The notes beneath the pieces were generated by a model. That model had not been told where the DNA came from. It saw only the letters and a program-made list of their open reading frames with translations, and made no database searches. The position numbers and the translations under genes were made by a program. Below, one piece after another: positions 4,215 to 59,594 of a stretch of DNA of 64,000 nucleotides. The stretch is from a bacterium. Lineage in GTDB: Bacteria > Vulcanimicrobiota > Xenobia > Xenobiales > Xenobiaceae. The stretch covers positions 9,726 to 73,725 of the forward strand of contig JALHDH010000006.1 in assembly GCA_022839105.1 (NCBI GenBank). The letters run 5' to 3'. Position 1 is the first letter of the stretch. Every line of letters begins with the position of its first letter.

Positions 4215-4298
4215 CGATTGTACAGGGATCCCGGAACTGCTGCGAAGCTCTCTCCTGCAGGGCTTCCTGGCCTTTCCCTGGAATCGGCCTCAGCCCTC

Positions 4299-9091: not shown

Positions 9092-9150
9092 GGAGGTTCC
9101 GTGCGCATCCTGAGTAACTCGAACCACCCCACGGTCCAGGAGGAGGTGCC

Positions 9151-9846: not shown

Positions 9847-9854
9847 GAGGAAAG

Positions 9855-10508: not shown

Positions 10509-10514
10509 AGAATC

Positions 10515-11165: not shown

Positions 11166-11546
11166 AGACAGTCAACGCAGAATCCGCCGCGCGGCCCGGG
11201 TCCATTGGCCGGTCTGCGAGCACGCGGCAGGTTCCAGCGCCCCATCGGAGCGGTCTCCGATGCCGGGCAGAACAGGTGAAACGCACGGTCGGGCCTCGAG
11301 GGTGCCCGTCCGAGCGAGGCGACAGCGGCCAGCCAGGCCTCGAGGCCCGGGGTATCCCTGGGGCGGTCCCGGAACGGGGCCTCCGCGCGGCCGGCCCCTT
11401 CGACGGCGGAAGGTGGTGATCAGTGCTACGGACGGTATCGACCCTCGAGGAATCAGGGGCACACGACTTCTCCGAGGCGCCACGAGCGCAGGGGGCGGTC
11501 GGCGCCTCACCCAGAATGATGGCCAATAGGAGGTGGGTAAAAACCA

Positions 11547-13642: not shown

Positions 13643-13987
13643 CCATGTCCGGCCGGGTTGGAATGCTCCTTCCCCTCCGTCTTCTTGGGAATCACGCAGG
13701 GGAGGAGGTCGGTCCTGGGGAACCGAACAGTCCGAAAGTCAAAGCCTGTCTTCTCGACCCGGGGCGCGGTTGCTTTGTTCGGGAGGGGCCCGGGGCGCTG
13801 GCCTGGGAGCCTGGGAATCCGGTCAGGTGGGGCGCCGGTTCCGGGGCCTCGGCGTCTTGATGGGATATCCGGGTTTCCGAGCAGCAGGTCTTGTCGGGCC
13901 CGCCCGGAGAGGCGGGCAGTCGGGGATTTGTTTTGCGACCCTGGGCTCGACGCAGGCGCAGGGCCCCAGAAAGTGGTGTGAACGCAA

Positions 13988-19189: not shown

Positions 19190-19238
19190 GGCCCGCCCCC
19201 TGGGATTCCACCCCAACTGAGCGCAGACCGGAGAAGAC

Positions 19239-22200
19239 ATGGCAGACCGCAAGAAGATCGACACGCTGATCCAGCAAGGGGACCAGTTGGCGGCCCAGAA
19301 CCGCTGGGATCAGGCCATGGGAGCCTATCGGCAGGCCCTGGAGCTGGCTCCGGAGGACGTGCAGGTTCGGGATCATATCCTGGAGGCGGCCACCCGCCGG
19401 GGGGACTATGGCGAGGTCATCAGTCAGTGCATGGCCCTGGCCGAGCTCTTCGCCGCCCAGGGAGAGGCCGACCAGGCCATCGAGCGCTACAAGATCATCG
19501 TCAACCTCGAGCAGAGCGTGCGCAAGAAGGATTTTGGAGGGGAAGAGGCCTCCGAGATCCAGAACCGGGTGTCGCAGGTCAAGCCAGAGATCTTCTCGCG
19601 GATCGGGAAGTTCTACCTGGAGAAGGGGGAGCATGACGAGTCCGTAGCCTGGCTTCGCTCCAGCCTGGACATCGACCCCGGCCGATGGGATACCCATATG
19701 GCCTTGGGCCGCGCCCTCATGGCTCAAGGCAAGGACAAGGAGGCCATCGGCGAGTTCCAGGAAGTCGTGCGGCTGGCGCCCAATGAGGCTGCCCAGGCCT
19801 ATGAGATGCTCGGCGAGGTCTTCATCCGGGCCGGGCGGACGCCCCAGACCACGGTGGTCTGGTTCCGCAATGCCGGCGAGCTCTACATGCAGCGCAAGCA
19901 GATGGTCGACGCCATCCGCACCTATGAGCGCATCCTGGAATACGAGCCGCGCAACAAGGACATCCTGGTCAAGCTTGCCGAGATCTACGCTTCGGAGGGA
20001 CGCAGCGAGCAGGCGGTGGAGACCTATCGCACCCTCGCCGGCATCTATCAGGAAGAGGGTCTGCTCGACAAGGTGATCGGCTTCTACGAGAAGCTGCTGG
20101 ATTGCGATCCCCAGAATGAGGAAGCCCGCAATCAGGTCATCGACATCTATCGCAACATTCTGGCCAGGGATCCCTCGAATACCTCGGTGCGACTCCGCCT
20201 GGTCGAGAACCTCCTGCGCCGCGGCATGACCTCGGAGGCTGGCGAGCAGCAACTGGCGCTGGCCCGTTCCCACCTGGAACGCGGCATGATCGAGGAAGCG
20301 CTCCCGGTGGCGCGTAAGCTCCTGGAGTTGGACCCGGGCAATATCGAGGCCCGCAAGCTGATGGGGGAGATCTATCGGAAGAAGGACATGAACTCGGAGG
20401 CCTTGACCGAGTTCCAGCAGGTGGTCCGACTGTACCAGGATGCCGGGGACGAGAAGGCCGCCATGGACTTCCAGCATCGCCTGGTCGAACTCTTCCCCGA
20501 GGCCTCGGACCTGCAGTACCAGGTCGCCCTGACCTTGCGAAGCCAGGGGGATCACGAGGGCGCCGTTCGCGAGCTGATGCGCCTGCTGGGAGAGCGTCCC
20601 GAGGATCTGCTGGCCATGATCTATCTGGCCGAGGAGTATTCGGCCCTGAACCGCTGGGATGAGGCGGTGGAGACCTATCGCACGGTGCTGACCCAGGAAC
20701 CCGCTCGGCTGGATGTGCGCAAGCGCCTGGTCAAGCATTGTCTGGAGTCGGGACGCCTGGATGAGGCCGTCCAGGAGATCCAGGCCCTTCCTGAAGAGGA
20801 TTTCGAGCGGGGCAGCCTGCTGTGCCGGGTGATCGAGAAGCAACTGGCGGACGGCCTCCTGGAGGAGGTCGAGCGCAACCTGGATCGCCTTTCCGATGAG
20901 GACGAACGCAAGGTCGGCTTCCGCAAGGATCTCATCAAGAGATACCTGGATGCCAACGATCTGCAGCGGGCTGACGCGGCCATGCCCCTGGTCCCTCGCT
21001 CGGACAAGGAGCGCAACCGGCTGGTGACCCGGCTGATGGAGATGTACCTCAGTTCAGGGAACCTCGAGACGGCGGCAGAGCTGATCAACCGGCTTCCCGC
21101 CGAGGACCCCCTGCGGCTCTCCTTCCAGAGGCGCCTGATCGGGTCGTATCAGGAGAGCGGTCGCCTGGAGGAGGCGGCAGCCGAGCTGGCTCGCCTTCCG
21201 GAGGGTGACGAGTCCCGCCCGGACTTCCTGGCCCGGCAGATCTCCGGATTGCTCACGGCAGGCCGCCTCTCCGAGGCGATCCGCGAGATCGAGCGGCTTC
21301 CGGAGGGGGACCCGGCCCGAAACTCGTTCATGGGCCAGTTGATCGAGGCCTACCTGCAGAGCGGCGACATCGATCGGGCCGCCGAGGAGGTCGGCCGCCT
21401 CTCGCTGGAGGACGAGATCCGACCCCGCTACCGCCGCCGCATCATCCAGGCCTACCTCAACGCGAATCGCCTGGAGGATGCCGAGCGCGACATCCATGCC
21501 CTCGAGCCGGGGGACCCCGAGAAACGCTCCTTCCTGCGCCTGCTCTTGCAGAAATTCGAGGCCACCGGGCAGATGGATCGCCTGCGCGAGATGCTTCTGC
21601 ACCTTCCCGATGACATGAACGAAAAGCAGCAGTATCTCGACGGGATCCTGCACAACTATCTCATGTCGGGGAATCTGGCCCAGATGCGCCAGGATGTCTA
21701 CCAGGTGGCGGAGTCGGTTTCGGCCGCCGGGAACCACCAGGAGGCCGAGCGTCTCTATCGCCAGTTGCTGGCCTATCATCCCGCGGACGTCGAGATTCGG
21801 TTGCGCCTCTCCCATGAGGTGGCCTGTCAGGGCGAGCTGGAGCGCGCCCGGGAAGGCATGCTGGTCCTGGCCGGGCGTTTCCACCGCGAGGGGAATGCGA
21901 CTTCGGCCGCGGACATCTACAGCCGCCTGCTCGAGATCGATCCGGAAAACCTGAATGCCCGCTATCGATTGGGCCATATCTGGGCCGAGCACGGTCAGAC
22001 CGCCCAGGCTCTGGAGCAGTTCTCCCAACTGGCCAAGGTCTACATGCTCCAGAATCTCCCCGAGGTCGCCCAGAGGGTGCTCAACCGCATCCTCGAGCTC
22101 GAGCCCAAGGACATCCCTCACCGGCGTCAGTTGATCCAGTTGTTGACGCGGAACCTGAGGTTTGACGAGGCCACCGAGCACTATCGGATGCTTCTCGGCA

Positions 22201-23660
22201 TCCATCTGGATCGCGGAGAGATCGACGAGGCGAGGCTCTGCGTCCGCGAGATTGTCAACCTCCAGCCCCTGAACCTGGAACTTCGCCAGAGGCTTGGCGA
22301 GATGTTCCTCAAGGCGGGCTTCCTGGAGGAAGGCCAGAAGCTGATGGAGGAGCTGGCTTCGACCTACAAGGGCCGGGGCGATCACAAGCACGTGATCGAG
22401 GTCTTCTGGACGCTCTCGCGGACCTTCGAGGACAACCAGCAGTGGGAGACCGCGCTGGAGTATCGCGAACGGGTTGCCGACGAGCTGGTCGAAGCCGAGG
22501 ACTGGAAGGAGGCCCAGGAGCAGTACCTCCATACCCTGGAGCACTACCTGGTCCGGGGCCGCAAGGAACGCACGGATCCTCTCTTCGTCAAGCTGATCGA
22601 CGGCTTCTTCCGCCACAAGAACGTTCCCGAGGGCATCTCCCGCATCGAGCGCCTGGAGGAGTCCTTCCTGGATCAGGGGCGCAAGAGCACCTCGCTGATC
22701 GTCAAGGATCGTCTGGCCGGGATCATGGAGAGGATGGAGGAGTGGGACCGGGCCCTGGAGCTGGTGGAGGCCATCTCCAGCCGCTACCTGGAACTCGGCG
22801 AGCACGAGCAGGCCATCGCCTACTGCCGTCGCGGTGCGGATCTGGCCCTGAATCACCAGCGCGCCGATCACGGCATGGAACTGCTCTTCCGTCTGGCTGG
22901 ACTGGTCCTGGCCTATCGCGGCGTGGAGGCGGCCCGGCCGGTCCTGGAGGAGATCCGTCGGCGTTCCGGCGAGGAGATCCGGCTCCTGGAGCGCATCGGG
23001 GATCTGCTCTTCAATGCCGAGCACTTCGAAGAGGCCCGCCCCTACTACGACGAGGTCCTGCGCAAGGAGCCGGGCTGCGCCGGGGCCCTTTCGCGGGTGG
23101 CCATCATCTATGCCCGGCAGGAGCGTCTGGAAGAGGCTGCCGGCGTGGCCCGCCAGATCTTCGCCAAGGGTCTGGTGGGTCGGATCGTCAGCGAGTATCG
23201 CCAGGCGGTCGGCTATTCACCGGAGGATGCCGGTTCCCAGATCAAGATGGGCGAGTTCTATCGCCAGATGGGCTTCCTGGAGGAGGCCATCCAGGAATTC
23301 CACCGCGCTTCCCGGGACCCGGGCAAGATGCTCGAGGCGGTGAACCAGTTGGCCCTGGCCTTCAAGGAGAAGGGATATCGGGAACTGGCCATCCGCCAGT
23401 TCCTCAAGGCCCTGGATCAGCCCGGGTTCATGGATGAGGATCTCCTGGACCTGCGCTATAATCTCGGGCAGGTCCTGGAAGAGGAAGGGCGTTTCCACGA
23501 GGCCCTCCAGGCCTACCAGGAATGCTATGCTGTGGACATCCGCTTCAGGGATGTCTCGGACCGGATCGAGGTCCTCTTCGAGAGGCTGCAGTCCGGCTCG
23601 CAAGGCGGGAACCTCGCTGAGTATGGGGAACCTGCAGACAATTGGGGCAGAGAGGGTTAG
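19239..23660 (+). CDS. 1473-aa all-helical TPR protein
   Basis: TPR-like repeats run throughout (LELAPEDVQV, DIDPGRWDTH, EYEPRNKDIL, DCDPQNEEA, ELDPGNIEA, EIDPENLNA, ELEPKDIPH). A gap-free 9 x 34-aa array lies at ~20787-21704. RBS is GGAGAAG. Confidence 0.8.
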   Translation: MADRKKIDTLIQQGDQLAAQNRWDQAMGAYRQALELAPEDVQVRDHILEAATRRGDYGEVISQCMALAELFAAQGEADQAIERYKIIVNLEQSVRKKDFGGEEASEIQNRVSQVKPEIFSRIGKFYLEKGEHDESVAWLRSSLDIDPGRWDTHMALGRALMAQGKDKEAIGEFQEVVRLAPNEAAQAYEMLGEVFIRAGRTPQTTVVWFRNAGELYMQRKQMVDAIRTYERILEYEPRNKDILVKLAEIYASEGRSEQAVETYRTLAGIYQEEGLLDKVIGFYEKLLDCDPQNEEARNQVIDIYRNILARDPSNTSVRLRLVENLLRRGMTSEAGEQQLALARSHLERGMIEEALPVARKLLELDPGNIEARKLMGEIYRKKDMNSEALTEFQQVVRLYQDAGDEKAAMDFQHRLVELFPEASDLQYQVALTLRSQGDHEGAVRELMRLLGERPEDLLAMIYLAEEYSALNRWDEAVETYRTVLTQEPARLDVRKRLVKHCLESGRLDEAVQEIQALPEEDFERGSLLCRVIEKQLADGLLEEVERNLDRLSDEDERKVGFRKDLIKRYLDANDLQRADAAMPLVPRSDKERNRLVTRLMEMYLSSGNLETAAELINRLPAEDPLRLSFQRRLIGSYQESGRLEEAAAELARLPEGDESRPDFLARQISGLLTAGRLSEAIREIERLPEGDPARNSFMGQLIEAYLQSGDIDRAAEEVGRLSLEDEIRPRYRRRIIQAYLNANRLEDAERDIHALEPGDPEKRSFLRLLLQKFEATGQMDRLREMLLHLPDDMNEKQQYLDGILHNYLMSGNLAQMRQDVYQVAESVSAAGNHQEAERLYRQLLAYHPADVEIRLRLSHEVACQGELERAREGMLVLAGRFHREGNATSAADIYSRLLEIDPENLNARYRLGHIWAEHGQTAQALEQFSQLAKVYMLQNLPEVAQRVLNRILELEPKDIPHRRQLIQLLTRNLRFDEATEHYRMLLGIHLDRGEIDEARLCVREIVNLQPLNLELRQRLGEMFLKAGFLEEGQKLMEELASTYKGRGDHKHVIEVFWTLSRTFEDNQQWETALEYRERVADELVEAEDWKEAQEQYLHTLEHYLVRGRKERTDPLFVKLIDGFFRHKNVPEGISRIERLEESFLDQGRKSTSLIVKDRLAGIMERMEEWDRALELVEAISSRYLELGEHEQAIAYCRRGADLALNHQRADHGMELLFRLAGLVLAYRGVEAARPVLEEIRRRSGEEIRLLERIGDLLFNAEHFEEARPYYDEVLRKEPGCAGALSRVAIIYARQERLEEAAGVARQIFAKGLVGRIVSEYRQAVGYSPEDAGSQIKMGEFYRQMGFLEEAIQEFHRASRDPGKMLEAVNQLALAFKEKGYRELAIRQFLKALDQPGFMDEDLLDLRYNLGQVLEEEGRFHEALQAYQECYAVDIRFRDVSDRIEVLFERLQSGSQGGNLAEYGEPADNWGREG

Positions 23661-23667
23661 AGGAGTC

Positions 23668-24684
23668 GTGAAGAGCGAGTCTCGCGTGTTCGTCTGGAGA
23701 AGCCCCTCGGCCGGGCCGCCCGGCCTGGTCTGGGGGGGCATGCTCCTGGCCTTCCTGTCCATGTCCGGGACCTGTCTGGCCGGGTCGCCTGGAGGGGGTC
23801 TGGCCGATCGCGCCGGTACCCTGCTGGGCGCCTTCTGGGTCCTGGTCGTCCTCCTGGGGGCCCTGCTCATCTGGGAGTTCCTGGATCGCCGGGCCTCTGC
23901 TGAAGGGCCTCCCCTGACGGGCACGGGCACCGGGAGTCCGGCGGCGGGCGTGGCCGAGGGCGAGGCCCCGCTCGAGGAGGAGGAGGACCCGTTCAAGGCC
24001 CTGCTCAAGAAGACCGCAGCCCCCGAGAAGGAACCCGCAGCTCCCGAACCGGGTGGGACTCCGGAAGAGCTCCTCCCCACGCGGCCTCCGGAACCGGTCG
24101 CTGCGCCCCGGCTCGACGACCTCGAGGAACTCAGCCCCTTCCAGCGTCTGGCCCAGATCGGGACCGAGGAGGTCGGTGCGATTCCGCCTGTGCCCCCTGA
24201 GGCGCGCGTGGCTGCTCCCCCACCAGCCGCTGCCGCCTCTGGCGGGGGAGACTGGGCTTCCCTGCTCAGCAAGGTGCAATCGGAGGAGGAGCCCCCGGCT
24301 CCCTCGCGGCCCTTGTCGCTGAAGTCGCCCGAGGAGGACCCCTGGAAGAAGCTCCTGGGACAGACGGCTTCGACGGAGGCGCCCGGGACGCAGCCCCCCG
24401 AGGTCGAGGAGGACCCCTGGAAATCCCTTCTCACGAAGACCGCCTCTGAAGCCTCCGCTCCGGCTGGTCCCGAGTCGAAGGCTGCTTCGATGCCGGCCAC
24501 CCCGGAGCCGTCCGCCCCGCCGGCCCGGATCAAGCTGGGAACACCCCCGGCTTCGACGCCGCCCCCGCCCCCTTCCCAGGACTCTCCGGATACCGAAACC
24601 GGCCGTCCTCGCTCCATCTCCCTTGATCTCAAACGGGAGGAGGGGCGGACCATCCCGCCCCCACCCCAGACTGAAGACGAGTAG
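23668..24684 (+). CDS. Membrane-anchored Pro/Glu/Ala-rich protein with repeated [ED]P[WF]xxLL motifs
   Basis: GTG 23668 follows AGGAG (23661-23665). Two hydrophobic segments are present (GMLLAFLSMSGTCLAG; TLLGAFWVLVVLLGALLIWEFL), followed by a disordered tail. G/C-rich third positions support this frame. The ORF-track start at 23434 overlaps the preceding gene. Confidence 0.55.
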   Translation: MKSESRVFVWRSPSAGPPGLVWGGMLLAFLSMSGTCLAGSPGGGLADRAGTLLGAFWVLVVLLGALLIWEFLDRRASAEGPPLTGTGTGSPAAGVAEGEAPLEEEEDPFKALLKKTAAPEKEPAAPEPGGTPEELLPTRPPEPVAAPRLDDLEELSPFQRLAQIGTEEVGAIPPVPPEARVAAPPPAAAASGGGDWASLLSKVQSEEEPPAPSRPLSLKSPEEDPWKKLLGQTASTEAPGTQPPEVEEDPWKSLLTKTASEASAPAGPESKAASMPATPEPSAPPARIKLGTPPASTPPPPPSQDSPDTETGRPRSISLDLKREEGRTIPPPPQTEDE

Positions 24685-24714: not shown

Positions 24715-25602
24715 TTGCAGGTCCCCAAAGGCAACATCCTGATCGAGGACGAGACGCTCCCGTACTCGGACATCAACACGATGCTCACCAACCTGGTGGA
24801 GGACACCTTCACCGGTTACGTGAAGCTGGACCTCCAGGATTCCTCGGGCCTGGTCTTCTATTCCGAGGGGAACCTGATCCGGGCCATGGAGGTCGATCCC
24901 GCCAGTGGAAGCGCCTCGGTCCACCTGCTGCCCCGACTCCTGAACCGGATCAAGAATCGCGATCTGGCCGTCTCCACCTACGTCGCTTCGGGGCAGATCG
25001 TCGACGTTCTGGGCGGACTCTTCGCATTCCAGCCCCTGTACCTCGACTATGAGGTCAAGCGACGCGAGCTCAAGAAGGTCCTGACCAACCTCGAGACCGG
25101 GGAATACAGCGGGATCATCAAGATGGCCAGCCGGGAAGGGACCCACTTCCTGTTGATGGACCGGGGAGAGCTGGTCACCGACCGCTTCAGCCGCGAGTAT
25201 GGTCAGATCCTTTGCGGGACCGACGCCGTCAGCGAGTTGCTGGACTATGTCCACAAGAACGGCGCAACGCTCAACGTCTACGCCGAGAAGGCCACCGAGA
25301 TCGAGAACCGCCGCCGCCTGAAGGAGGAGGAACTCGAGAAGATCAAGCAGCTCATCGCACGCCAGGATGGGACGTTCTTCCGGGCCGGAGACATCGTCAA
25401 GGTGGACGAGTACATCGTGCGCGAGTGGGGCCTGGATGCCAAGACGACCTTCAACGTCGAGTTGGAGACCTCCGATGGCGATCTGTATGAGTACAAGTGC
25501 CAGGCGGCCCGCAAGATGGGGGGCTATGCCGGGCTGGCACCGGCGATGATCAAGAAGATGGGCATCAAGGAAGGCGACCTGATCACCATCCGGCCCGTCT
25601 AG
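24715..25602 (+). CDS. Hypothetical protein: two similar N-terminal modules, a coiled coil and a small C-terminal beta-barrel-like domain
   Basis: TTG 24715 lies 8 nt after GGAGGA. The duplicated pattern is L.NL....F[TS]G[YI]VKL..(6)G.. versus LTNLETGEYSGIIKMASREGTHFLLMDRGELV. The C-terminus AMIKKMGIKEGDLITIRPV resembles AbrB/Cdc48-N-type barrels. Amino-acid composition is normal. Confidence 0.6.
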   Translation: MQVPKGNILIEDETLPYSDINTMLTNLVEDTFTGYVKLDLQDSSGLVFYSEGNLIRAMEVDPASGSASVHLLPRLLNRIKNRDLAVSTYVASGQIVDVLGGLFAFQPLYLDYEVKRRELKKVLTNLETGEYSGIIKMASREGTHFLLMDRGELVTDRFSREYGQILCGTDAVSELLDYVHKNGATLNVYAEKATEIENRRRLKEEELEKIKQLIARQDGTFFRAGDIVKVDEYIVREWGLDAKTTFNVELETSDGDLYEYKCQAARKMGGYAGLAPAMIKKMGIKEGDLITIRPV

Positions 25603-25682: not shown

Positions 25683-27092
25683 TCAGGCTCCGCGGCGGGG
25701 AAGGCGGACCCCGCCGATCACGATCCAGTCCTCGGACTTCTCGATGGTGCCGGCCTTCTCGGGAGAAGTGGGCTTCATGAGATCCTCTGGACGGGTGGTG
25801 TGATCGACCTCGAGGTCGGTCAGCCGGTTCCAGGTGCCCGTGGCCGGATCGCAGGACCACAGCGCCGGACCCTCGCTGAAGAGGACTCGACCATCCTCAA
25901 GATCGCCCTCCAGTTGGAACTTCTGGCGGGACGGGTCCAGGAGGATCTCGGCGTGGGTGGTTCCGTCGGTCCCCAGGCGGGAAACCCGATCCTCGTGCCG
26001 GATCAGCACGGTTCCCGGTTGGGTCCCGCTGCGGAAGGTGTCGGCCTTGGCCTTCAGGTCGGCGACCTTCTCGGGCTTGCCCTCGGCGGTGATCACCCGG
26101 ACCTCCCTGCCACCGTCGTGGAAGAAGAGGCTGCCGTCCGGATTGACCAAGAAGCGGGTCGTGTCCGAGAACTCGCCAGTCGCCCACTTCTGGGTCCCGT
26201 CGGCGGTGAGTCGGACGAAAGCCGTGCGAGTCAGGGTGGTGGGCATGAAGTGATCCGGATCGAAGTGCCGCCCCATCCCGGGGAACCCGAACATCCCGCC
26301 CCGGGGAGAGCGCATGGTCAGGTAGCTGCTCCGCTGGATCAGCACGTCCCCGTCGGACAGGCCCCAGGCCCTCTCGGTGGAGTAACTGGTCCGCTCCTCC
26401 GCCGGCCAGGTGGGAAGAGGCGTCGCCGTGGCGCCGGAACCTCCGGGGGCCAGGCGGATGGCCTTCTGGCCCGCAAGGATCATCAGGCCCCCCTCCGGGG
26501 TGGGCTGGATGGTGCGCGCCCGGACTCCGACCAGGTCGCCCGGAAGTGCGATCTCCTGGCCGTCCGGGGCGGTTGCGCGCACCGTCTCCCCATCCCGAAG
26601 CTGTTCCAGGCGCATGCCCGTCCCGTCCTGGTGGTGCGCCCGAATGGCCGGGCCTCCGGTGTGGCTCTCGGTCAGACGGCCGTCCGCCGAAGCGATCAGC
26701 CGACCATCCGGAGTCCCCAGATGGATCCTGCCATCCGGTGCCACACCCACATGCGCGATCCGATTCTCGCCCAAGGCCAGTTCCCAGGAAATCTTCCCTT
26801 GAGGGTCCACGGCCGCAAGATACGCCTTCTTGCCCTGACCGCTCTCGCTGTAGCCGATGTACAGGGTCCCGTCCGAGGCTCGAGCCCAGGCCGTGGGGCG
26901 GTAGTTGGATTCCGACTTCTTGAGCTGATTGCCCTGGGTCAGGGTCCGGGCTGCGCGCCGCAGTCGATCCGGATCCTCGGCGGGGCCCGCGCTCTCGAAG
27001 CGATCCGAAGGCGCAGCGGGGACCGGAGCACTCGGCGGATGCGGGAGCGGCGTGCCTGTTGGGATGGGGTTGAGGTTGACGTTGACGTTCAC
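25683..27092 (-). CDS. Hypothetical protein with repeated [PSAT]DG-type beta-propeller-like motifs; Pro-rich N-terminus, no obvious signal peptide
   Basis: GTG start. Recurrent motifs include SDGTLYIG, PDGRIHLGTPDGRLIASADGRL, PDGQEIAL, SDGDVLIQ, ADGTQKWA, PDGSLFFHDGG, TDGTTHAEI and EDGRVLFSEG. Composition is normal, whereas the overlapping plus-strand ORF is Gly/Arg/Pro-rich. Confidence 0.6.
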   Translation of the reverse strand: MNVNVNLNPIPTGTPLPHPPSAPVPAAPSDRFESAGPAEDPDRLRRAARTLTQGNQLKKSESNYRPTAWARASDGTLYIGYSESGQGKKAYLAAVDPQGKISWELALGENRIAHVGVAPDGRIHLGTPDGRLIASADGRLTESHTGGPAIRAHHQDGTGMRLEQLRDGETVRATAPDGQEIALPGDLVGVRARTIQPTPEGGLMILAGQKAIRLAPGGSGATATPLPTWPAEERTSYSTERAWGLSDGDVLIQRSSYLTMRSPRGGMFGFPGMGRHFDPDHFMPTTLTRTAFVRLTADGTQKWATGEFSDTTRFLVNPDGSLFFHDGGREVRVITAEGKPEKVADLKAKADTFRSGTQPGTVLIRHEDRVSRLGTDGTTHAEILLDPSRQKFQLEGDLEDGRVLFSEGPALWSCDPATGTWNRLTDLEVDHTTRPEDLMKPTSPEKAGTIEKSEDWIVIGGVRLPRRGA

Positions 27093-27107: not shown

Positions 27108-27788
27108 CTAATACTCTCGGGAAGAGGCTTGGGGGCGGATTTCCTGGATCCAGTTATAACCTTCGACCTGGCGGGTCAGCAGGATGGAACCCGGGGTGTC
27201 GCCGCCCCGGATGCTTCCCGTCATGGGGTTTCCATCCAGGGTGCCCTGCAGATGGGTGACCTGACCTTGAGGATCGGGTCGCCCGGCCAGGTGCAGCGCA
27301 ACCGAGCCGAAGTGGCCCACCAGTTGGAAGCCCAGGGTCCAGGGATCCACGCCGAGCTGCTGGTGCACGGGGACATCCCCCACCTGGCCGGAGTATCGGA
27401 ATCCTCCCAGAAGGGTGTCGATCCGCATGCGGTCCTGGGAGTTGCCGATGCGTCCCTGCACCTGCAGGCCCATCGGGTTGCTCAGGACCGAGGCCTCCAG
27501 GGGCTGGTCTCCTGCGTTCCCGGAAATCCGGAGACCCTGGAAGGTCTTCTCCAGCCGGTAGCAGACCTGGGTCTCCGTGCCATCCGGGGCCTGGATCCTG
27601 TTGAAGACGTCCACCACCGGGGTTCGGTTCAGCATCTGTCCCGTGACGAGGTTGGAAACGGCGTCAGCCGAGGGTGAGGCCATGGCCTCCAGGGGGGTGT
27701 CCACGCGATCAAAGCGGACGGGATGGGGATTGGAGCGGATCTGCATTCCTTTGAGCCGCCTTCTCAAGATTCCGGGTCTCATTTCCAC
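27108..27788 (-). CDS. Hypothetical protein with about five Gly-periodic repeats (G[LF]x[IVL]xGxxG), possible beta-solenoid
   Basis: Repeats seen: GLRISGNAGD, GLQVQGRIGN, GFRYSGQVGD, GFQLVGHFGS and HLQGTLDGN. Its stop is 15 nt upstream of the next gene's start. The start is ambiguous: GTG 27788, ATG 27782 or ATG 27746. Confidence 0.5.
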   Translation of the reverse strand: MEMRPGILRRRLKGMQIRSNPHPVRFDRVDTPLEAMASPSADAVSNLVTGQMLNRTPVVDVFNRIQAPDGTETQVCYRLEKTFQGLRISGNAGDQPLEASVLSNPMGLQVQGRIGNSQDRMRIDTLLGGFRYSGQVGDVPVHQQLGVDPWTLGFQLVGHFGSVALHLAGRPDPQGQVTHLQGTLDGNPMTGSIRGGDTPGSILLTRQVEGYNWIQEIRPQASSREY

Positions 27789-27904
27789 TATAAGAGGGGA
27801 GGCCCCTGCAGTTGGTGAACTGGATGTGAACGGTGCCCGGGGCGCCGGCGCAGGATCTTCCTTCTCATGGGAGAAGGGGCCGCTCGCAAGTCTGGAGGTC
27901 GCCC

Positions 27905-28261
27905 GTGTCCGATACCGCTGAGATCCTCGAAGCCTTCTCCCGTCTGGATGGGGTCTTTGGAGCCCTGGTCCTGAATGGCGAGGGTCAGATCTGCGCCGAA
28001 CATCTGGTCGATTTTGCAGATCGGGACGGCTTGTCCGCGGCGGTGCACCGCAGTCGCAATCTGGCTGGCCGCCTGACCGGCGCCCTGGGCCAGGGCAACC
28101 TGACCCAGCAGGCCCTGGAGTTCGAGGACTCCCAGGTCATCGTCGAGATCCTGGAAGGCGGTCATGCCCTGGCGGTGGCTGCGGCCGCGACCGCCAACCT
28201 GGGACGCATCCGTCTTGAACTCCGCAAGAACAGGAAGGCCGTCGAATCCAGCCTGGCTTGA
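27905..28261 (+). CDS. Roadblock/LC7 domain protein (MglB-like fold)
   Basis: The 118-aa product reads LEAFSRLDGVFGALVLNGEGQICAE...LTQQALEFEDSQVIVEILEGGHALAVAAAATANLGRIRLELRK, which matches the Robl_LC7 pattern. GTG 27905; the ORF-track upstream extension is Arg/Gly-rich. Confidence 0.75.
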   Translation: MSDTAEILEAFSRLDGVFGALVLNGEGQICAEHLVDFADRDGLSAAVHRSRNLAGRLTGALGQGNLTQQALEFEDSQVIVEILEGGHALAVAAAATANLGRIRLELRKNRKAVESSLA

Positions 28262-28269
28262 GGAATTCC

Positions 28270-28656
28270 ATGCCCCACAGGATCCTCGTCGCAGACGATG
28301 AGCCCCATATCGTCGAACTGGTCCGGGTCAGCCTGGAGGAGTTCGACGTGGAGGTCCTGGACGCCCCCGACGGAGAGGCGGCCCTGGCGGCCGCGCGTCG
28401 CCTCCAACCCGAGATCCTCCTGCTCGACGTCATGATGCCCAGGGTCGATGGATTCGAGGTGTGTCGTCGTCTCAAGGCCGAACCTTCGACCCGCGGGATC
28501 ATCGTGATCATGTTCACGGCCAAGGCCCTGGAGGCAGATCGCCAGCGTGCCCGGGAAGTGGGCGCCCAGGGCTACGTCACCAAGCCGTTCAGCCCCATGC
28601 AACTGGCTTCGGTGGTTCGGGAGCGCCTGCGGGAACTTCCGTCCGCAGTCGAGTGA
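28270..28656 (+). CDS. Single-domain response regulator (CheY-like receiver, no output domain)
   Basis: MPHRILVADDEPHIV...LLLDVMMPRVDGFEVCRRLK...IIVIMFTAKA...GAQGYVTKPFSP shows the DD, phospho-acceptor D, T and K positions. RBS is GAGGA. Confidence 0.9.
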   Translation: MPHRILVADDEPHIVELVRVSLEEFDVEVLDAPDGEAALAAARRLQPEILLLDVMMPRVDGFEVCRRLKAEPSTRGIIVIMFTAKALEADRQRAREVGAQGYVTKPFSPMQLASVVRERLRELPSAVE

Positions 28657-30242
28657 TGGTCGGGGGCCAGGAGGGGCGACCCAGAGAGCAGTTGGCCGCC
28701 CTGTATGAGATCGGCCGGGCCTTGAACTCCACCCTGGAACCGGATGAAGTCCTGGACCTGATCCTGGGCATGACCCTGGATCTCTTCTCGGCAGATGCGG
28801 GGTCCATCATGCTGCTCCATGAGGGGCTTCTCCGGATCCACCGGGCCCGCGGCCTTCCCCCGGAGGTCGTGGAGAAGACGGTGGTCCCCCTGGGCCAGGG
28901 GATCGCCGGATGGGTCGCCCTCACGGGCGAGATGCTGCTTCTGAACGGCCGGATCGACGACCCCCGGTTTCGCAACCTGGTTCGCCGGGACGACGAGATC
29001 TCGTCTTCGTTGTGCACCCCCCTGCGCAGTCGCCAGGGGGTGATCGGGGTCATGATGGTCCGCCGGGCGGGTTCGACGCCCTTCAGCCGGAGCCAACTCG
29101 ATTTCTTCGCCTCAGTTGCCGACCAGGCCGCGCTGGCCCTGGAGAACGCCCGGCTCTTCCGGAGCGAACAGGAGCGTTCCTGGCAACTGGCCCGGGAGCA
29201 ACAGAAGTTCCAGGCCATCTTCCGGGACATGGCCGACGGGGTGCTGGTCATCGACCCCTCGGATCGGATCGCCCACCTGAACGCCTCGGCCCGGCGTCTC
29301 CTGGACCGGGCCGGGGAAATCTCGGGTCTGTGCCTGGCCGAGCTTCTGCCCCGATTCCCCCTGGAACTGGTTCGCGAGACCCTCAAGACACAATCGGAGC
29401 CCTTCGAGGCCGACGTCACGCTCCAATCCGGCTCGGGGAACTCGGTCCTCAGGGTGACGGCCACCTCGCTCGGACCCTGTCCTGTCGAGCCCGAGGGTCT
29501 GGTGCTGCTCCTCCACGACGTGACCGAGAGGGTGCGGGTCGAGAGGATGAAGTCGGAGTTCCTTTCGGCGGTCTCCCACGAACTGAAGACTCCTCTGACC
29601 ACCGTCTCGGGTTTCCTGGAGCTGATGCTGAATCGCGAGTATGATCGGCCTCGGCAGGAGCAGTACCTCTCCATCAGCCTGGCCGAGGCCCAGCGACTTC
29701 AGCGCCTGATCGAGGACCTGCTGACCTTGTCGCGCCTGGAATCCGGGCAGTTCCACCTGCAGCCCGGACCGGTCCGCCTGGATCGCGTGGCGGCCGGGGT
29801 CCTTTCGGGCTTCTCCGAGCGTTACCCGGGATTCTCCTTCAAGCTCGAGGTCCTCGGAGAGATCCCGGAAGTTCAGGGGGACGGGGATCTGCTCGCCCAG
29901 GTCCTGCTCAACCTCCTGTCCAACAGCGTCAAGTACAGCCCCGATGGGGGGGAGGTCCGGGTCCTGGTGCGCGCCGAAAACCAGAGCGTCCGAGTTTCGG
30001 TCGAAGACCAGGGAATCGGGATCCCCAGGGATAAGATCCCCTTCGTCTTCGACAGGTTCTTCAGAGTCGACAACTCCCTGACCCGCAGCACTGGCGGGAC
30101 CGGCCTGGGGCTGGCCAATGCCCGCTACATCGTCGAGGGGCATGGGGGGACCATCTGGGGCGAGAGCCCTGGAGAGAAGGGAAGCCGGTTCACTTTCGTC
30201 TTGCCCTGCGAGCGGAAGGAACCTCAAGAGAGCGAGGCTTGA
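28656..30242 (+). CDS. Cytoplasmic GAF-PAS sensor histidine kinase
   Basis: ATG 28656 overlaps the receiver gene's stop (TGATG). GAF-like N-terminus (LYEIGRALNSTL...GIAGWVALTGE) and a PAS-like middle region. H-box SHELKTPLTTVSGF, N-box LLSNSVKYSP, G1 DQGIGIP and G2 GGTGLGLANARYIV are present. No TM segment. Confidence 0.9.
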   Translation: MVGGQEGRPREQLAALYEIGRALNSTLEPDEVLDLILGMTLDLFSADAGSIMLLHEGLLRIHRARGLPPEVVEKTVVPLGQGIAGWVALTGEMLLLNGRIDDPRFRNLVRRDDEISSSLCTPLRSRQGVIGVMMVRRAGSTPFSRSQLDFFASVADQAALALENARLFRSEQERSWQLAREQQKFQAIFRDMADGVLVIDPSDRIAHLNASARRLLDRAGEISGLCLAELLPRFPLELVRETLKTQSEPFEADVTLQSGSGNSVLRVTATSLGPCPVEPEGLVLLLHDVTERVRVERMKSEFLSAVSHELKTPLTTVSGFLELMLNREYDRPRQEQYLSISLAEAQRLQRLIEDLLTLSRLESGQFHLQPGPVRLDRVAAGVLSGFSERYPGFSFKLEVLGEIPEVQGDGDLLAQVLLNLLSNSVKYSPDGGEVRVLVRAENQSVRVSVEDQGIGIPRDKIPFVFDRFFRVDNSLTRSTGGTGLGLANARYIVEGHGGTIWGESPGEKGSRFTFVLPCERKEPQESEA

Positions 30243-31309
30243 CCAGGAAGATGGAGACCATGACCACCATGGAGCGACAGCTCGAAGAGGCTCGGATGGC
30301 CGTCCGTGAGGCCCCGGAGGACCTCGAGACCTTGTTGGCCTGCGGGCAGATCTGCCTGCGCCGAGACCTGCGCCTGGAGGCCCTGCAGCATTTCCAGGCC
30401 GTGTTGGAGGTCCAGCCTCGGGTCGAAGCCCGCCTGGGCCTGGCTCAGCTCTTCGCGCGCCAACAGCACCATCTCGAGGCCTACGACGAGCTCAGGCGCC
30501 TCTTCGAGCTCGAACCCCTGCACGTGCTCGGACATGCCCTGCTCCGCTCCTTGAAGGCGCGGGAGCCCGTCCCCCAGGATCTCCAGCCTCGGCTGGAATT
30601 CGTGCCCTCGCGCAAGGATCTGGCCGAGCAGCGCCGACTTCTGGAAGTCGAGCGGGAGCTGCTGACCGCTGAGGTCGACCAGTATCGGGTCCTGTCCGGT
30701 GCCCCGGACGCCGAGCCCATCCTCCAGTATCATTTCGAGGAATCTCGCCAGCGGGTCGAGCGCCTCCACGAACTCCTGGAATGCCTGGAAGCCTGGGAGA
30801 AGCAGGCCCTCGAGGTGCATCCGGGAGAGGTTTGCGAGCAGGGCGAAGCTCCTGAGCCCGGCCAGTCCTCCGCACCCCCTCCGACTTCCGAATCCGAATT
30901 GCCGGTTCGGGCCGCGGTCTCTCCGGAGGTCCTGCAGAGCTTCTACGCCGAGATCCGTCTTCAGGTCGACGAGATCCTGGGCCGGCTGGGGCGGACCCGG
31001 GGCGTGCTCGGTTCGCTGTTGCTGGCGGAGGATTTCGGCCTGGTCTGGCAGGTCGGTTTCGAGGCAGAGGTCGAGCCGGTCCTTCGGGATGTCCTGGAAG
31101 GGGTCGCCCTGCTGCGCGCCTATAGCCAGGCCTTCAGGAGCTGGATCATGGAGAGCGAGGGCGGCCTCTTCGTCGTCCAACAGGTCGATCCCGGCCATCT
31201 GCTGCTGGTCTGTGGGAAGGCCGGAGCCAATCTCGGGACCCTGCGCTACACGATCGAGAAGAACCGGATCGATCTGGCCCGACTCGTCCAGAAACGCCCT
31301 CTGTCTTGA
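30239..31309 (+). CDS. TPR / coiled-coil / C-terminal roadblock-LC7-like fusion protein
   Basis: N-terminal TPR-like hairpins (LEALQHFQAVLEVQPRVEARLGLAQLF...ELEPLH). The C-terminal ~110 aa read RGVLGSLLLAEDFGLVWQVGF...IMESEGGLFVVQQVDPGHLLLVCGKAGANLGTLRYTIEK, matching the roadblock pattern. The start overlaps the kinase stop (TTG 30239); ATG 30251 is an alternative. Confidence 0.65.
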   Translation: MTRKMETMTTMERQLEEARMAVREAPEDLETLLACGQICLRRDLRLEALQHFQAVLEVQPRVEARLGLAQLFARQQHHLEAYDELRRLFELEPLHVLGHALLRSLKAREPVPQDLQPRLEFVPSRKDLAEQRRLLEVERELLTAEVDQYRVLSGAPDAEPILQYHFEESRQRVERLHELLECLEAWEKQALEVHPGEVCEQGEAPEPGQSSAPPPTSESELPVRAAVSPEVLQSFYAEIRLQVDEILGRLGRTRGVLGSLLLAEDFGLVWQVGFEAEVEPVLRDVLEGVALLRAYSQAFRSWIMESEGGLFVVQQVDPGHLLLVCGKAGANLGTLRYTIEKNRIDLARLVQKRPLS

Positions 31310-31322
31310 GGCCCTCCGGATC

Positions 31323-33761
31323 TTGAAGAGTTCCCGGGTTCTCGCTGCCCTCCTGGACGGCCTGGCCTTCGCCGGGCTGTTCTTGGTTCTGCTCTTCCCC
31401 GCGGTGACGGCCTTGACCAGCCTCGGGCATGGGCGGGTCCCCCCCGAACTGGTGGCAGGAGGGGCGCCGGGAGGAGCAGGGGGGATTCTGCTGCAGGTCC
31501 TCTCCCAGAGTGATTCCGGCGGGCAGATGCCGGCTGCGGCTGCCCTGCTTCGGGGCCTCATCCTGCTGGCCGGAGCCCTCTGGCTGCTGAGACCCCGGCG
31601 GATGGACCCCCGACTTCTCGGGGGAACCCTCTGCGCCGGGGGGTACCTGGCCCTGGCCCTGGTCTCCGCCCTGGTCTGTGGGCATCCTCGGGATGCCCTG
31701 ACCGGTTGGGCGAACACCCTGGCCATGGTGTCGTGTTTCCTGGTGGCAGCGGGTCTGGCGCGGCAGTATCGCCATCTGCCGCTCCTGCACCTGGGGGCTC
31801 TGGCCTTCCTTCTGGCCATCGCGCCCGTGCTGCCCGCGGCCTGGTTCATGTTCATCCTGAACCCTGATCCGGACATCGCCCTCTTCGGCTCCTTCTATCA
31901 GCCGAACATGTTCGCGGGCTACCTGCTGCTGGGAGTTCCCCTGGCTTCCGCGTGTTTCTTCTTCCCCGAGGGCCAGGTCCGGGAGGTCCGGGCCCGCAGT
32001 CTTCTGGGCGGGCTCTTCCTGGTCGCCTTCCTGGTCTCCCTGTACTACACCTATTCCCGTTCCGCCTGGGCCTTCGCCTTGTTGGGGACGCTCCTGCCCT
32101 TGGCCCTGGTCCCCGGAGCGGGCGCGGCGCTCCCAGGACGACGGCTCCTGGCCATGGGTCTGTGTCTCGGGGGACTGGGAGGGGGAGCCTTGATGAGCCT
32201 CCGGGGGGAGAGCCTCTGGGCCGGCGGGCTGGTGGTCCTGGGATTGTCGGCCGGGGGCTGGTTGCTGGCCACGCTCCCCAGGGTTCGAGCCCTGGTCCCC
32301 TGGCTGGTCCTGGTCGGCCTGCTGGCCCTGGGCATGGTCTGCACCCTGGCCAAGGGCGAGGATCTGGTGGCCTCGCATGCGGTCCAGCGTGCGGGGCAAC
32401 TGGCCACCGGGCAGGACAATTCGGGGGCGGCGCGAGTGGAATTCTATCGGGCCGCCTGGAAGATGGCCCTGCAGAACCCCTGGCTGGGCGTCGGCCCCGA
32501 GGGATTCCACCGCAGTTATCCGTCCTTCCAGGCCGATCTTCGCTGGTTCGCCAAGTATGCCCATAGCCTGACGATGACTCTTCTGGCCGAGACGGGTTTT
32601 CCGGGAGCACTGCTTTTCTATCTGGCGGTGGGGCTCTGGGGCCGGGTCGGTTGGAAGCGCTCATGCTCTGCCGAGTCGCCTTCGACCCTTCCCTACGCCG
32701 GGCGGACCCTGCGTCTGGGTCTGGGCCTGGGAGTCCTGGTCTTCCTCGGGCACGCCCAGTTCGACGTGGACTTCCAGTTCGTGGCCTTGCCATTCACAGC
32801 AGCCCTGATGGCAGGGCTGGCCGTGGGCCATCCTGCCGAGGGGGAGGAGATTGAAGGACCCGCCCTTCGGCCTCGCTCGCCCTGGTCGATTCGCCCCGCG
32901 CTCGGCCTGCAGTTCCTGGTCAGCCTCCTCCTGCTGGGGGTGGTCTGGGTTGGAGCCCGCTGGGGATTGGGGGATTACCTGGCCAGCCAGGCCAGGCTGG
33001 CCTCAGAGGCCCATCGGGAGGACCTGGCCTTGGACCTGTACCGGGCGGCGACCCGTTGGGATCCCCTGCAAGGGGAGCATGAGCGCCAGGCCGCCCTGAT
33101 CCTCCTGGATGGAATCCTGGTCGGGCGGGGCACCCCCGAGAGCAGGATGGAAGCCTTGCAGAGAACCACGCGGGCCGTGGAACTCGATGCGGGTCGCGCG
33201 GTCAACCACAGCGCTCATGGTCGGGTCCTGGAGGCGCTGGGCCGGTTCGCCGAGGCCGAAGCCAGCTATCGCAAGGCGTTGCAGCTCGATCCGGTCAACT
33301 TCCCCTCCTTCTATCTGGATATAGCCCGGATGATGGCTCAGGGAGGAGATCTCGAAGAGGCCCGCCGGTTCCTGGAGGAGGCCCTGGGGCGCTATCCGCG
33401 AGAGGCCTCTGCGGTCATGTTCACGTTCCGTTCCGCTGCCCTGGACGAACAACTGGCCGAGATCCACCTCCATCTGGCTCTCATGCACCCATCAGGCTCG
33501 TCCGAGCGCCTGGAGAACCTGAAGAAGTCCGTGAGCCTGAATCCAGGTTCCTCCCAGGCCCGTTACGCCCTGGCTGTCGAGGATTTCCAGGAAGGGGTTC
33601 GACTCGAAGCCGCGGGACACCCCGAGAGGGCGCGCCCGGTCTTCCAGAGGGTGCACCGGATCCTGATCGATCTGTACCGAATCTCTCCCGACTTTCCCCC
33701 CCTGCAGAACCATCTCCGGGACCTGGAAGGGCGTGGATTCGGGGTGGAAGCCCGTCCCTGA
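31323..33761 (+). CDS. O-antigen ligase-like (Wzy_C / WaaL-PglL-TfpO family) polytopic membrane protein with C-terminal TPR domain
   Basis: YYTYSRSAWAFALLGTLL and KYAHSLTMTLLAETGFPGALLFYL are typical Wzy_C-region motifs among >10 TM segments. C-terminal TPRs are RWDPLQGEH, ELDAGRAVNH, QLDPVNFPS and SLNPGSSQA. The start is uncertain (TTG 31323 chosen). The ORF-track start at 30699 overlaps the previous gene. Confidence 0.75.
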   Translation: MKSSRVLAALLDGLAFAGLFLVLLFPAVTALTSLGHGRVPPELVAGGAPGGAGGILLQVLSQSDSGGQMPAAAALLRGLILLAGALWLLRPRRMDPRLLGGTLCAGGYLALALVSALVCGHPRDALTGWANTLAMVSCFLVAAGLARQYRHLPLLHLGALAFLLAIAPVLPAAWFMFILNPDPDIALFGSFYQPNMFAGYLLLGVPLASACFFFPEGQVREVRARSLLGGLFLVAFLVSLYYTYSRSAWAFALLGTLLPLALVPGAGAALPGRRLLAMGLCLGGLGGGALMSLRGESLWAGGLVVLGLSAGGWLLATLPRVRALVPWLVLVGLLALGMVCTLAKGEDLVASHAVQRAGQLATGQDNSGAARVEFYRAAWKMALQNPWLGVGPEGFHRSYPSFQADLRWFAKYAHSLTMTLLAETGFPGALLFYLAVGLWGRVGWKRSCSAESPSTLPYAGRTLRLGLGLGVLVFLGHAQFDVDFQFVALPFTAALMAGLAVGHPAEGEEIEGPALRPRSPWSIRPALGLQFLVSLLLLGVVWVGARWGLGDYLASQARLASEAHREDLALDLYRAATRWDPLQGEHERQAALILLDGILVGRGTPESRMEALQRTTRAVELDAGRAVNHSAHGRVLEALGRFAEAEASYRKALQLDPVNFPSFYLDIARMMAQGGDLEEARRFLEEALGRYPREASAVMFTFRSAALDEQLAEIHLHLALMHPSGSSERLENLKKSVSLNPGSSQARYALAVEDFQEGVRLEAAGHPERARPVFQRVHRILIDLYRISPDFPPLQNHLRDLEGRGFGVEARP

Positions 33762-40472: not shown

Positions 40473-40653
40473 GGTGCCTTGAGTATAGGCGGGGTCCGGG
40501 CCGGGATCGATGAACTGAAGGTGAACAAAGTCCCTGGTTGAAGACGGGGGGGGGTTCTGCTATGTTCCTACCCGGGTCTGGCCCTTCCCACCCGGTCCCC
40601 GGTGTGCGAGATGCCCGGCACAGGCCCCCAAGGTTTCTGGGAACGCAGAGGGG

Positions 40654-55231: not shown

Positions 55232-55318
55232 GGGGTTGGGTGGACCTTCAGGGAAAAGGATTTCCGGTCCGCGGCGGGTTGCGCCGCGGACCGGGCAGGG
55301 GCGGAGGGCACCGGGGAA

Positions 55319-56755: not shown

Positions 56756-57071
56756 GGGGACCTCTTCGTTCCGGTCTGGCCTCTCCTCGACGGGGAGGCC
56801 CGCGCGCTAGATTATATCACCCGATCTGTCGGACTGCATCCGCTTCTTGTTCCCTTGAATTCCAGGAGATTTTTGGGAGGGGTCCTCAACCAGGCCAGGC
56901 CGGTTGTCGAAACCTCCTCTTGTGTGTTATGTTTGTTCGCGTGACCAGCCACCCCCTCTCTCAGAATCCTCCCATCCCAGGCGTCGGACCCCGGCCTTTC
57001 GACCAGGTCCCCGACGGGCCTGTCCTGGAGGCCCCAGGTCCTCACCTGGACGGGTGCCGTGATCTCTCCCG

Positions 57072-59590: not shown

Positions 59591-59594
59591 GGAC

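Follow-up and report, generated by a model that had tools for sequence, protein, structure and literature searches.

Two roadblock domains and no nearby GTPase: an operon that may form part of a type IV pilus accessory cluster in Eremiobacterota

From bacterial MglB to the human Ragulator, roadblock proteins are known from textbooks as the partners of small GTPases. What, then, might two roadblock domains do in an operon that has no GTPase gene near it? Such an operon lies in a 64,000-nucleotide (nt) stretch of DNA (the window) from a member of the Xenobiaceae (assembly GCA_022839105.1, contig JALHDH010000006.1, positions 9,726 to 73,725). Five tightly packed plus-strand genes between positions 27905 and 33761 of the window, here called g1 to g5 (Table 1), encode in order a small roadblock/LC7 protein, a CheY-like receiver, a histidine kinase, a TPR protein that ends in a second roadblock domain, and a membrane protein of the Wzy_C type. 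The preferred reading, held tentatively and given slightly less than an even chance, is that the operon is the downstream half of a type IV pilus (T4P) accessory cluster conserved across the Eremiobacterota, in which a roadblock heterodimer would serve as a scaffold with an optional phosphorelay input.

The roadblock identity of g1 is plain from sequence. The protein matches Robl_LC7 (PF03259) with 39.9 bits against a gathering cut-off of 23 (E 3.5e-10), and a profile of its family, run against the PDB, finds MglC (7ct3, E 1e-8) first and MglB (6h5b, 3e-8) second, with an Asgard roadblock protein, CvnB5 and dynein LC7 among the other matches. Its C-terminal motif reads N-L-G-R-x-R-L-E-x-R-K. 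The second roadblock domain, at the end of g4, is cryptic: Pfam gives weak TPR matches for this protein and no Robl_LC7 match at E<=0.1. The AlphaFold2 (AF2) model of g4, built on an alignment of 19 homologs, has a mean predicted local distance difference test score (pLDDT) of 84 and falls into three parts. Residues 1 to about 192 form a TPR-like helical head with a long coiled-coil hairpin, residues 193-226 a disordered, acidic and proline-containing linker, and residues 229-350 (pLDDT about 77-95) an alpha-beta-beta-alpha-beta-beta-beta-alpha fold. All 50 of the top 50 PDB matches found with Foldseek are roadblock folds, including Asgard roadblock proteins, MglB, MglC and LAMTOR/MP1-p14; their target template modelling (TM) scores reach 0.86 at root-mean-square deviations (rmsd) of 1.6-1.8 Å, and the best match is 9jue (target TM 0.85, rmsd 1.6 Å).

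A profile of the g4 C-terminal domain ranks CvnB5 (E 0.003), a roadblock protein, MglC and MglB first in the PDB, with marginal E-values. When the g1 family is aligned directly with this domain by hhalign, the match has a probability of 97% (E 8.6e-11), and the two share a C-terminal helix motif, N-L/F-G-x-x-R-x-x-x-x-K. A distant homolog of the g4 domain, at locus L026, passes the Robl_LC7 model itself with E 2.5e-8. NCBIfam has no specific family for g1, for g4 or for the PATAN-like protein encoded upstream. A first-pass annotation, made from the sequence alone, had proposed that g4 ends in a roadblock-like domain, and the predicted LC7 fold, the Foldseek matches, the profile search and hhalign all bear this out; with homology visible at profile level and by fold, the domain can be taken as confirmed. 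The same annotation had named the domains of the other four proteins correctly, as Pfam shows. Roadblock proteins generally act as dimers and platforms, as do MglB, MglC and the LAMTOR heterodimers.

Is a GTPase encoded nearby? Pfam found no small GTPase and no DUF742 protein among all the sizeable open reading frames (ORFs) of the window. Walker A motifs occur in five window ORFs of at least 100 amino acids (aa), which are PilT, adenylate kinase, the first of two giant TPR proteins (at its C-terminal end) and ORFs at 40542-41456 (+) and 49544-49942 (-); none of the five has a GTPase match in Pfam or matches the GTPase probes. The MglA and Ras probes, whose sequences are approximate, gave no tblastn match to the window or to the related loci. 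Related loci were searched over ±10 kb each, and no GTPase gene was found within that distance in any of 28, which range in GC content from 33 to 73%. The first-pass annotation had stated that the operon and the whole 64 kb lack both genes, which holds, and had asked whether an mglA or cvnD gene sits beside orthologs, which it does not at these 28 loci.

Coupled MglA/MglB pairs have been defined by an MglA-family GTPase at most four genes from an mglB homolog (PMC4316618), and no such pair is present in the window or at the 28 loci. The conservon arrangement is half present: a kinase (g3) and a roadblock protein (g1) share one operon, though g3 is soluble and has a cognate receiver, and neither CvnC (DUF742) nor the CvnD GTPase is encoded in the operon or the window. 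The label "conservon-like" that the locus had been given therefore falls, two of the four defining parts being missing. With neither a GTPase nor a DUF742 gene in the window or beside its orthologs, the locus is distinct from ordinary MglAB loci and from ordinary conservons.

That no GTPase is encoded nearby is less unusual than had first been supposed, because orphan MglB homologs without one are common (328 of 749, about 44%; PMC4316618) and PATAN genes near MglB homologs have been known since Makarova et al. 2006, as cited in the same paper. Among the orphans, MglC alone has been characterised; its partners are MglB and RomR, and its subfamily is confined to genomes that encode a group-1 MglA (PMC4719450). 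A literature search found no paper that joins roadblock proteins with pilMNOPQ, or Eremiobacter with MglA. Roadblock genes without a GTPase are common, and this feature alone is not remarkable; the novelty lies in an architecture of two roadblock domains, one of them fused to TPRs, which recurs beside pilus assembly genes and into which a CheY-like receiver is wired in some lineages.

How widely is this architecture conserved? A word-indexed search found 19 clusters of the g4 family, and an exhaustive hidden Markov model (HMM) search of 1.84 billion representatives found 82 clusters at E<=1e-30. There are about 100 full-length two-domain members in the HMM search, of 300-900 aa, which differ mainly in the length of the linker (about 35 to more than 350 residues among homologs). 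Their carriers are labelled UBP9, Ca. Bruticola, Vulcanimicrobiota or Eremiobacteraeota, which at NCBI correspond to the phylum Vulcanimicrobiota (Eremiobacterota), class Ca. Xenobia. The cluster also occurs at 51-94% protein identity in contigs of metagenome-assembled genomes labelled Burkholderiales or Selenomonadaceae (L006, L007, L022); these bins are probably misclassified or contaminated.

Synteny was followed by tblastn and ORF calling in 22 Eremiobacterota loci, which fall into three clades. In clade A (the window and six loci), the order is TPR giants, Pro-rich protein, PATAN-like gene, two minus-strand genes, g1-g2-g3-g4-g5 and a convergent C39 peptidase gene. Clade B, twelve gut and rumen Xenobia loci, has TPR giants, a gene X, PATAN-like gene and g1-g4-g5, again with the convergent C39 gene, and lacks the receiver and kinase. 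Clade C, four loci of which most are labelled Vulcanimicrobiota, has TPR giants, X, PATAN-like gene and g1-g2-g3-g4; a g5-type gene directly follows g4 in L019 and L021, the two loci that allowed the check, whereas none was detected at L022 and the sequence of L020 stops within g4. Two more distant loci keep less: L025 has PATAN-like gene, g1, g4 and a Wzy_C-TPR gene, and L023 (33% GC) has TPR giants, PATAN-like gene, g1 and g4, followed by ribosomal protein genes and without the Wzy_C-TPR gene.

The gene order of the window recurs in ten further loci at 32-80% protein identity, so the arrangement is not due to chance. A g1 gene stands beside or near the g4 homolog in 27 of 27 related loci that have a g4 homolog and upstream flank (the 22 Eremiobacterota loci, L023, L025 and the reversed-order pairs L026, L028 and L029 described below). 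Wherever the flank of an Eremiobacterota locus is long enough, it contains upstream orthologs of the TPR giants, at 51-61% identity (25-29% in L023), and the PATAN-like gene lies directly 5' of g1 in clades B and C, L023 and L025. The invariant core is thus the PATAN-like gene, the roadblock gene and the TPR::roadblock gene, behind the TPR giants. Neither receiver nor kinase is encoded at the 12 gut/rumen Xenobia loci or the two more distant loci, and the Wzy_C-TPR gene is missing from the L023 lineage and the Goldbacteria-type pair; the five genes do not form the co-conserved unit that had been assumed. The proposed link to pilus genes fared better, being backed by this synteny, with the core behind the TPR giants and, in the window, also behind pilMNOPQ.

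The pair of minus-strand genes between the PATAN-like gene and g1 occurs in clade A only. The comparison marks it as a clade A insertion that split the ancestral operon and left g1 with an upstream region of its own, which presumably holds an operon promoter acquired after the insertion. Because of these two genes, the operon of the window looks more self-contained than it was ancestrally. Its five genes had been described as translationally coupled, and their junctions were confirmed. g1 starts at a GTG with a GGAGG six bases 5' of it; 8 nt separate g1 from g2; the ATG of g3 overlaps the g2 stop by 1 nt (TGATG); and g5 starts at a TTG 13 nt after g4. The 4-nt overlap of g3 and g4 (cTTGA) exists only if the TTG is the start of g4. 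The N-termini of orthologs fit the in-frame ATGs at 30251 and 30260 better, either of which may be the true start, and the gap would then be 8 or 17 nt.

Three further loci, L028, L029 and L026, were reached by a search with the g1 family and lie outside the phylum. The clearest is L028, a 685-kb contig whose protein cluster is labelled Ca. Goldbacteria at NCBI. Its gene order is pilD-pilM-pilN-pilO, a 149-aa protein, pilQ-aroC-aroK-aroB, a TPR::Robl gene and a roadblock gene. The TPR::Robl protein (460 aa) consists of TPRs, a linker of charged repeats and a Robl_LC7 domain, and the 118-aa roadblock protein that follows contains the sequence NLGRGRLELKK. At L029 and L026, aroB is likewise followed by the TPR::Robl and Robl genes. 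The order of the pair is reversed at all three loci relative to the window, with the same architecture, and no GTPase gene was found within 10 kb of any of them. A fourth locus, L027 (73% GC, cluster labelled 'bacterium HR32'), has a g1-like roadblock gene after genes for a sigma-70 factor and a weakly PATAN-like protein, and a second small roadblock gene 7 kb upstream, with no TPR::roadblock gene in view (coordinates 2653-3024, 8243-9966 and 10001-10354).

The rates at which the proteins have diverged suggest a tie between the two roadblock domains. The PATAN-like protein of the window is 55% identical to its clade B counterparts and 38% to those of clade C, and the g4 head 43% and 32%; both follow the expected phylogeny, in which B is closer than C. 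Both roadblock domains show the inverse: identity to clade B and clade C is 35% and 43% for g1, and 24% and 32% for the g4 domain. Both have thus diverged faster in clade B, the clade without receiver and kinase, a correlation drawn from a small sample. Direct contact between the roadblock domains, with the phosphorelay acting on both, would be expected to leave such a pattern, which fits a co-evolution of the two domains and their functional link with the phosphorelay.

What could the phosphorelay contribute? The receiver g2 matches Response_reg with E 1.2e-27, and its phosphorylation residues, read from the translation, are intact (DD9-10, D53, T83 and K105). It is closest to receivers of the OmpR/PhoB type, with PhoB, PleD and MtrA as the best partial matches in NCBIfam. 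In g3, Pfam finds GAF, PAS, HisKA and HATPase_c domains, the H-box reads SHELKTP, and hydropathy reveals no hydrophobic or transmembrane segment. Given the phototaxis of Vulcanimicrobium alpinus, a cultured relative, a bilin photoreceptor was considered for the GAF domain; by eye, however, it looks like a generic GAF/GAF_2 without a cyanobacteriochrome-type Cys-His motif. The two adjacent genes together have the marks of a two-component pair: H-box, HATPase_c, acidic pocket, Thr and Lys. Orthologs of g3 with 45-47% identity occupy the same slot in Vulcanimicrobiota-labelled loci, and the receiver-kinase pair is common to clades A and C in that slot at 44-47% identity. Most simply, the common ancestor already had the pair, and clade B and some other lineages lost it.

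The last gene, g5, is an enzyme of the Wzy_C type (64.7 bits against a cut-off of 31.7, E 1e-17), with TPRs at residues 610-700. Two residues of its Wzy_C loop, R371 and H414, are invariant among 12 orthologs from four clades; Arg and His are the residue types that are essential in WaaL. Its AF2 model has a predicted TM score of 0.78, and model and hydropathy together place four membrane helices after the loop (416-447, 460-477, 488-502 and 525-545). In the published structure of WaaL, the loop is reportedly periplasmic and followed by three helices, so that the extra fourth helix would place the TPR arm of g5, 250 residues long, in the periplasm. A probably periplasmic TPR tail, as the model predicts, could hardly be a direct partner of cytoplasmic switch proteins. 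This location, together with the absence of g5 from L023 and the Goldbacteria-type pairs, suggests that g5 is an accessory, co-expressed function and not the output of the switch. No PglL_A or Wzy_C_2 match was found at E<=0.1 in Pfam, and the NCBIfam matches to IctB and a PEP-CTERM ligase are weak. The pilin gene (3623-4165) is 27 kb away, so g5 does not lie directly 3' of it. A Foldseek search of the PDB with the full g5 model returned no WaaL-type protein in the top 50; the list is dominated by the TPR arm and is uninformative on the membrane core.

These parts can be put together as follows. In the preferred reading, g1 would pair with the C-terminal roadblock domain of g4, and this heterodimer would be the working core, tethered by the flexible acidic linker to the TPR/coiled-coil head of g4. 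The head would dock the pair onto the PATAN-like protein and the two TPR giants, which would be cytoplasmic and associated with the pilus, and the complex might set the place or the timing of pilus motor activity. In the lineage of the window, g3 would sense a cytoplasmic signal and phosphorylate g2, and phosphorylated g2 may bind the roadblock pair, providing the on/off input that is the role of the GTPase in MglA/MglB systems. Co-transcribed with these genes, g5 would act as a WaaL-like ligase or polymerase that modifies some periplasmic or surface component used with pili, either pilin or a motility-associated polysaccharide, with no direct part in the switch. A bolder version holds that the phospho-receiver replaces MglA-GTP as the binary input to a GTPase-independent roadblock heterodimer whose head directs the T4P motor, for example in phototaxis, and that the pair beside pilMNOPQ in several uncultured phyla represents an unrecognised and widespread class of pilus regulators; this is unlikely. 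Published work speaks for the preferred reading: Synechocystis has PATAN-REC regulators that bind its T4P motor (bioRxiv 10.1101/2021.06.11.447907), PATAN proteins were among the candidates considered alongside SopA in a study of Myxococcus xanthus SgmX (PMC11580455), and V. alpinus, of all the phylum the one member in culture, lacks flagella and shows a positive phototaxis that has been attributed to T4P (PMC9758169).

Several observations weigh against the preferred reading. Genes for pilus assembly are in view only at the window and L028, the 10-kb flank of the other loci ending inside the TPR giants, and at L029 and L026 none are in view. The PATAN-like protein of the window scores 20.3 bits against PF14332, below the gathering cut-off of 25, and a look for a solved structure to compare it with found none. 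A scan for sigma-70 and terminator consensus sequences between 23.5 and 35 kb found none at the operon boundaries, though such a scan is uninformative for this phylum. Many relatives do without the receiver and kinase, so the core cannot depend on the phosphorelay as its essential switch. Finally, the negative result for a nearby GTPase covers ±10 kb per locus. This last point leads to the account in which g1 and g4 are MglB/MglC-type partners (GTPase-activating protein, co-activator or scaffold) of an MglA- or SofG-like GTPase encoded elsewhere, so that the locus would be a piece of a dispersed but ordinary polarity system. The sequence of g1, to which MglC and MglB come closest among relatives of solved structure, speaks for it, as do the frequency of orphans (PMC4316618), the fact that MglC works inside the MglA network (PMC4719450) and the limited reach of the inspection. 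It is set against the lack of a GTPase near any of the 28 related loci over their wide range of GC content, and, as a weak point, against the published gene table of V. alpinus, a selective list that has pilM and pilQ and no mglA, roadblock or GTPase gene. On balance, a distal GTPase is a somewhat unlikely explanation.

Alternatively, the Wzy_C-TPR enzyme could be the real output, with g1 to g4 controlling a surface glycan or the glycosylation of pilin, and the proximity to pil genes being secondary. The 13-nt coupling of g5 to g4, its position after g4 in clades A, B and C and in L025, and its invariant catalytic-loop residues would all fit, and enzymes of the Wzy_C type include the pilin O-glycosylases TfpO and PglL. 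However, the roadblock pair persists in L023 and the Goldbacteria-type pairs where no such gene follows g4, the TPR arm is probably out of reach of cytoplasmic proteins, and g5 lacks the PglL_A and Wzy_C_2 matches and resembles IctB and PEP ligases weakly, which makes this account quite unlikely. A general, conservon-like module, in which kinase and roadblock control a developmental or metabolic programme unrelated to pili, is very improbable. It would account for a kinase and an MglB-type roadblock in one operon, as for CvnA and CvnB (PMC4316618 and PMC13343842), and CvnB5 is the top PDB sequence match of the g4 roadblock profile; but CvnC (DUF742) and the CvnD GTPase are absent, the kinase is a soluble GAF-PAS protein with a cognate receiver, and it is the kinase that is lost in many relatives in which the roadblock pair and its pilus-side neighbours stay.

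The proposed scaffold can be compared with several known systems. The M. xanthus polarity system (MglA/MglB/MglC, RomR/RomX/RomY, SgmX and FrzS) has MglB/MglC-type roadblocks, a receiver-domain protein, and large TPR and PATAN proteins associated with T4P, and its paralogous roadblocks MglB and MglC bind each other. The window locus differs in having no MglA-type GTPase, in the fusion of one roadblock domain to a TPR/coiled-coil head through a disordered linker, in an input from a soluble GAF-PAS kinase rather than the Frz chemosensory system, in a co-transcribed Wzy_C enzyme, and in TPR giants that are not SgmX orthologs. Streptomyces conservons likewise join a kinase and an MglB-type roadblock in one operon, but the window, from another phylum, lacks CvnC and CvnD and has a soluble kinase with a single-domain receiver, two roadblock domains and a link to pili. 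In the cyanobacterial PATAN-REC systems (PixG, PilG and TaxP-type), a PATAN-type protein and a CheY-like receiver are also encoded with T4P genes, and the pilus-driven phototaxis of V. alpinus is a further likeness. Here, however, the PATAN-like protein, itself a weak match, is not joined to the receiver in one chain and there is no CheA or MCP, and the cyanobacterial systems have no roadblock proteins.

The Ragulator/LAMTOR complex (MP1-p14, LAMTOR4-5) offers a structural parallel, with two different roadblock subunits forming a heterodimeric platform, as is proposed here, and with strong structural matches. It serves Rag GTPases, of which there is no sign here, and the relationship in sequence does not extend beyond the fold. 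WaaL, TfpO/PilO and PglL share with g5 the Wzy_C domain, the conserved loop Arg and His, a polytopic core and, in the case of tfpO, a position near pilus genes; g5 differs by its extra helix and 250-residue TPR arm, by having no PglL_A or Wzy_C_2 match and by not being adjacent to the pilin gene.

The locus is a concrete, conserved and genetically compact example of roadblock proteins without a GTPase gene nearby, in which the two domains seem to have evolved together. It could reveal how bacteria other than the Myxococcus and Pseudomonas models set their polarity or pilus activity, and whether phosphorylation instead of GTP can drive roadblock platforms. The hypothesis could be tested in cultured V. 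alpinus, if the strain is genetically tractable.

Table 1. Features of the window and of related roadblock pairs, with coordinates
Feature	Coordinates	Strand	Description	Basis
pilM-pilN-pilO-(pilP?)-pilQ	7991..13589	+	directly 5' of the TPR giants	Pfam PilM_2, PilN, PilO, Secretin, AMIN
Two giant cytoplasmic TPR proteins	13982..23660	+	1735 and 1473 aa	Pfam TPR families
Membrane-anchored Pro/Glu-rich protein	23665..24684	+	between second TPR giant and PATAN-like gene	
PATAN-like protein (DUF4388/PatA_N)	24715..25602	+	295 aa; ancestral upstream neighbour of g1	
Two minus-strand genes	25683..27092 and 27108..27788	-	469 and 226 aa	
Divergent intergenic region	27789..27904	no strand	116 nt, 5' of g1	gene map
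g1	27905..28261	+	118-aa stand-alone roadblock/LC7 protein, MglB/MglC type	Pfam, family profile
g2	28270..28656	+	128-aa single-domain CheY-like receiver	Pfam
g3	28656..30242	+	528-aa soluble GAF-PAS-HisKA-HATPase_c histidine kinase	Pfam, hydropathy
g4	30239..31309	+	356-aa protein: TPR/coiled-coil head, acidic linker, C-terminal roadblock	AF2, Foldseek, hhalign
g5	31323..33761	+	812-aa polytopic Wzy_C (O-antigen-ligase-like) protein with TPR tail	Pfam, AF2
TPR::Robl + 118-119 aa roadblock pairs	L028:8594-10357, L029:8548-10360, L026:3390-5109			

Upstream of the operon, pilus genes lie in the order pilB (partial), pilT, pilC, pilin, a polytopic protein with a TPR tail, pilD, a second pilin-like gene and pilMNO(P)Q. 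The polytopic protein (4176-6170, +), between the pilin gene and pilD, has about 5-6 hydrophobic segments and C-terminal TPRs. Its position recalls that of pilin-modifying enzymes (TfpO); TPR models match it, and neither Wzy_C nor a glycosyltransferase model does. The second prepilin-like gene (7205-7594, +), in the gap between pilD and pilM, encodes an N-terminal methylation motif and has a weak match to ComP-type minor pilins.

The TPR giants had been called SgmX-like, and orthology to SgmX was considered and rejected: they score 132 and 52 bits against the NCBIfam model NF052243, whose cut-off is 1800, and unrelated TPR models score higher, so that the similarity is one of generic TPRs. The Pro/Glu-rich protein that follows has two N-terminal hydrophobic segments and an acidic tail of 270 residues. 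Its slot holds a gene of similar size in all Eremiobacterota loci, barely conserved in sequence, with 41-54% identity found within clade A only. Ten of 11 orthologs of the PATAN-like protein match PF14332, the best with E 5e-6, below the gathering score. The larger of the two minus-strand genes has a weak PA2928-family and beta-propeller-like match.

On the other side of the operon, a C39_2-like cysteine peptidase gene (33827-34618, -) converges with g5 and is followed by a P-type metal ATPase. The position of the peptidase gene is kept in clades A and B, where its product is 67-89% identical, compared with 43% for g4 and 30% for g5. Further downstream, the region 49115-63998 encodes two GT2 glycosyltransferases, a PMT_2 protein, a lysyl-PG-synthase-like membrane protein, a FecR-domain protein and several radical SAM enzymes, two with B12-binding domains and one other (53765-63998). 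It may be a cluster for lipid/glycan modification or for peptide modification.

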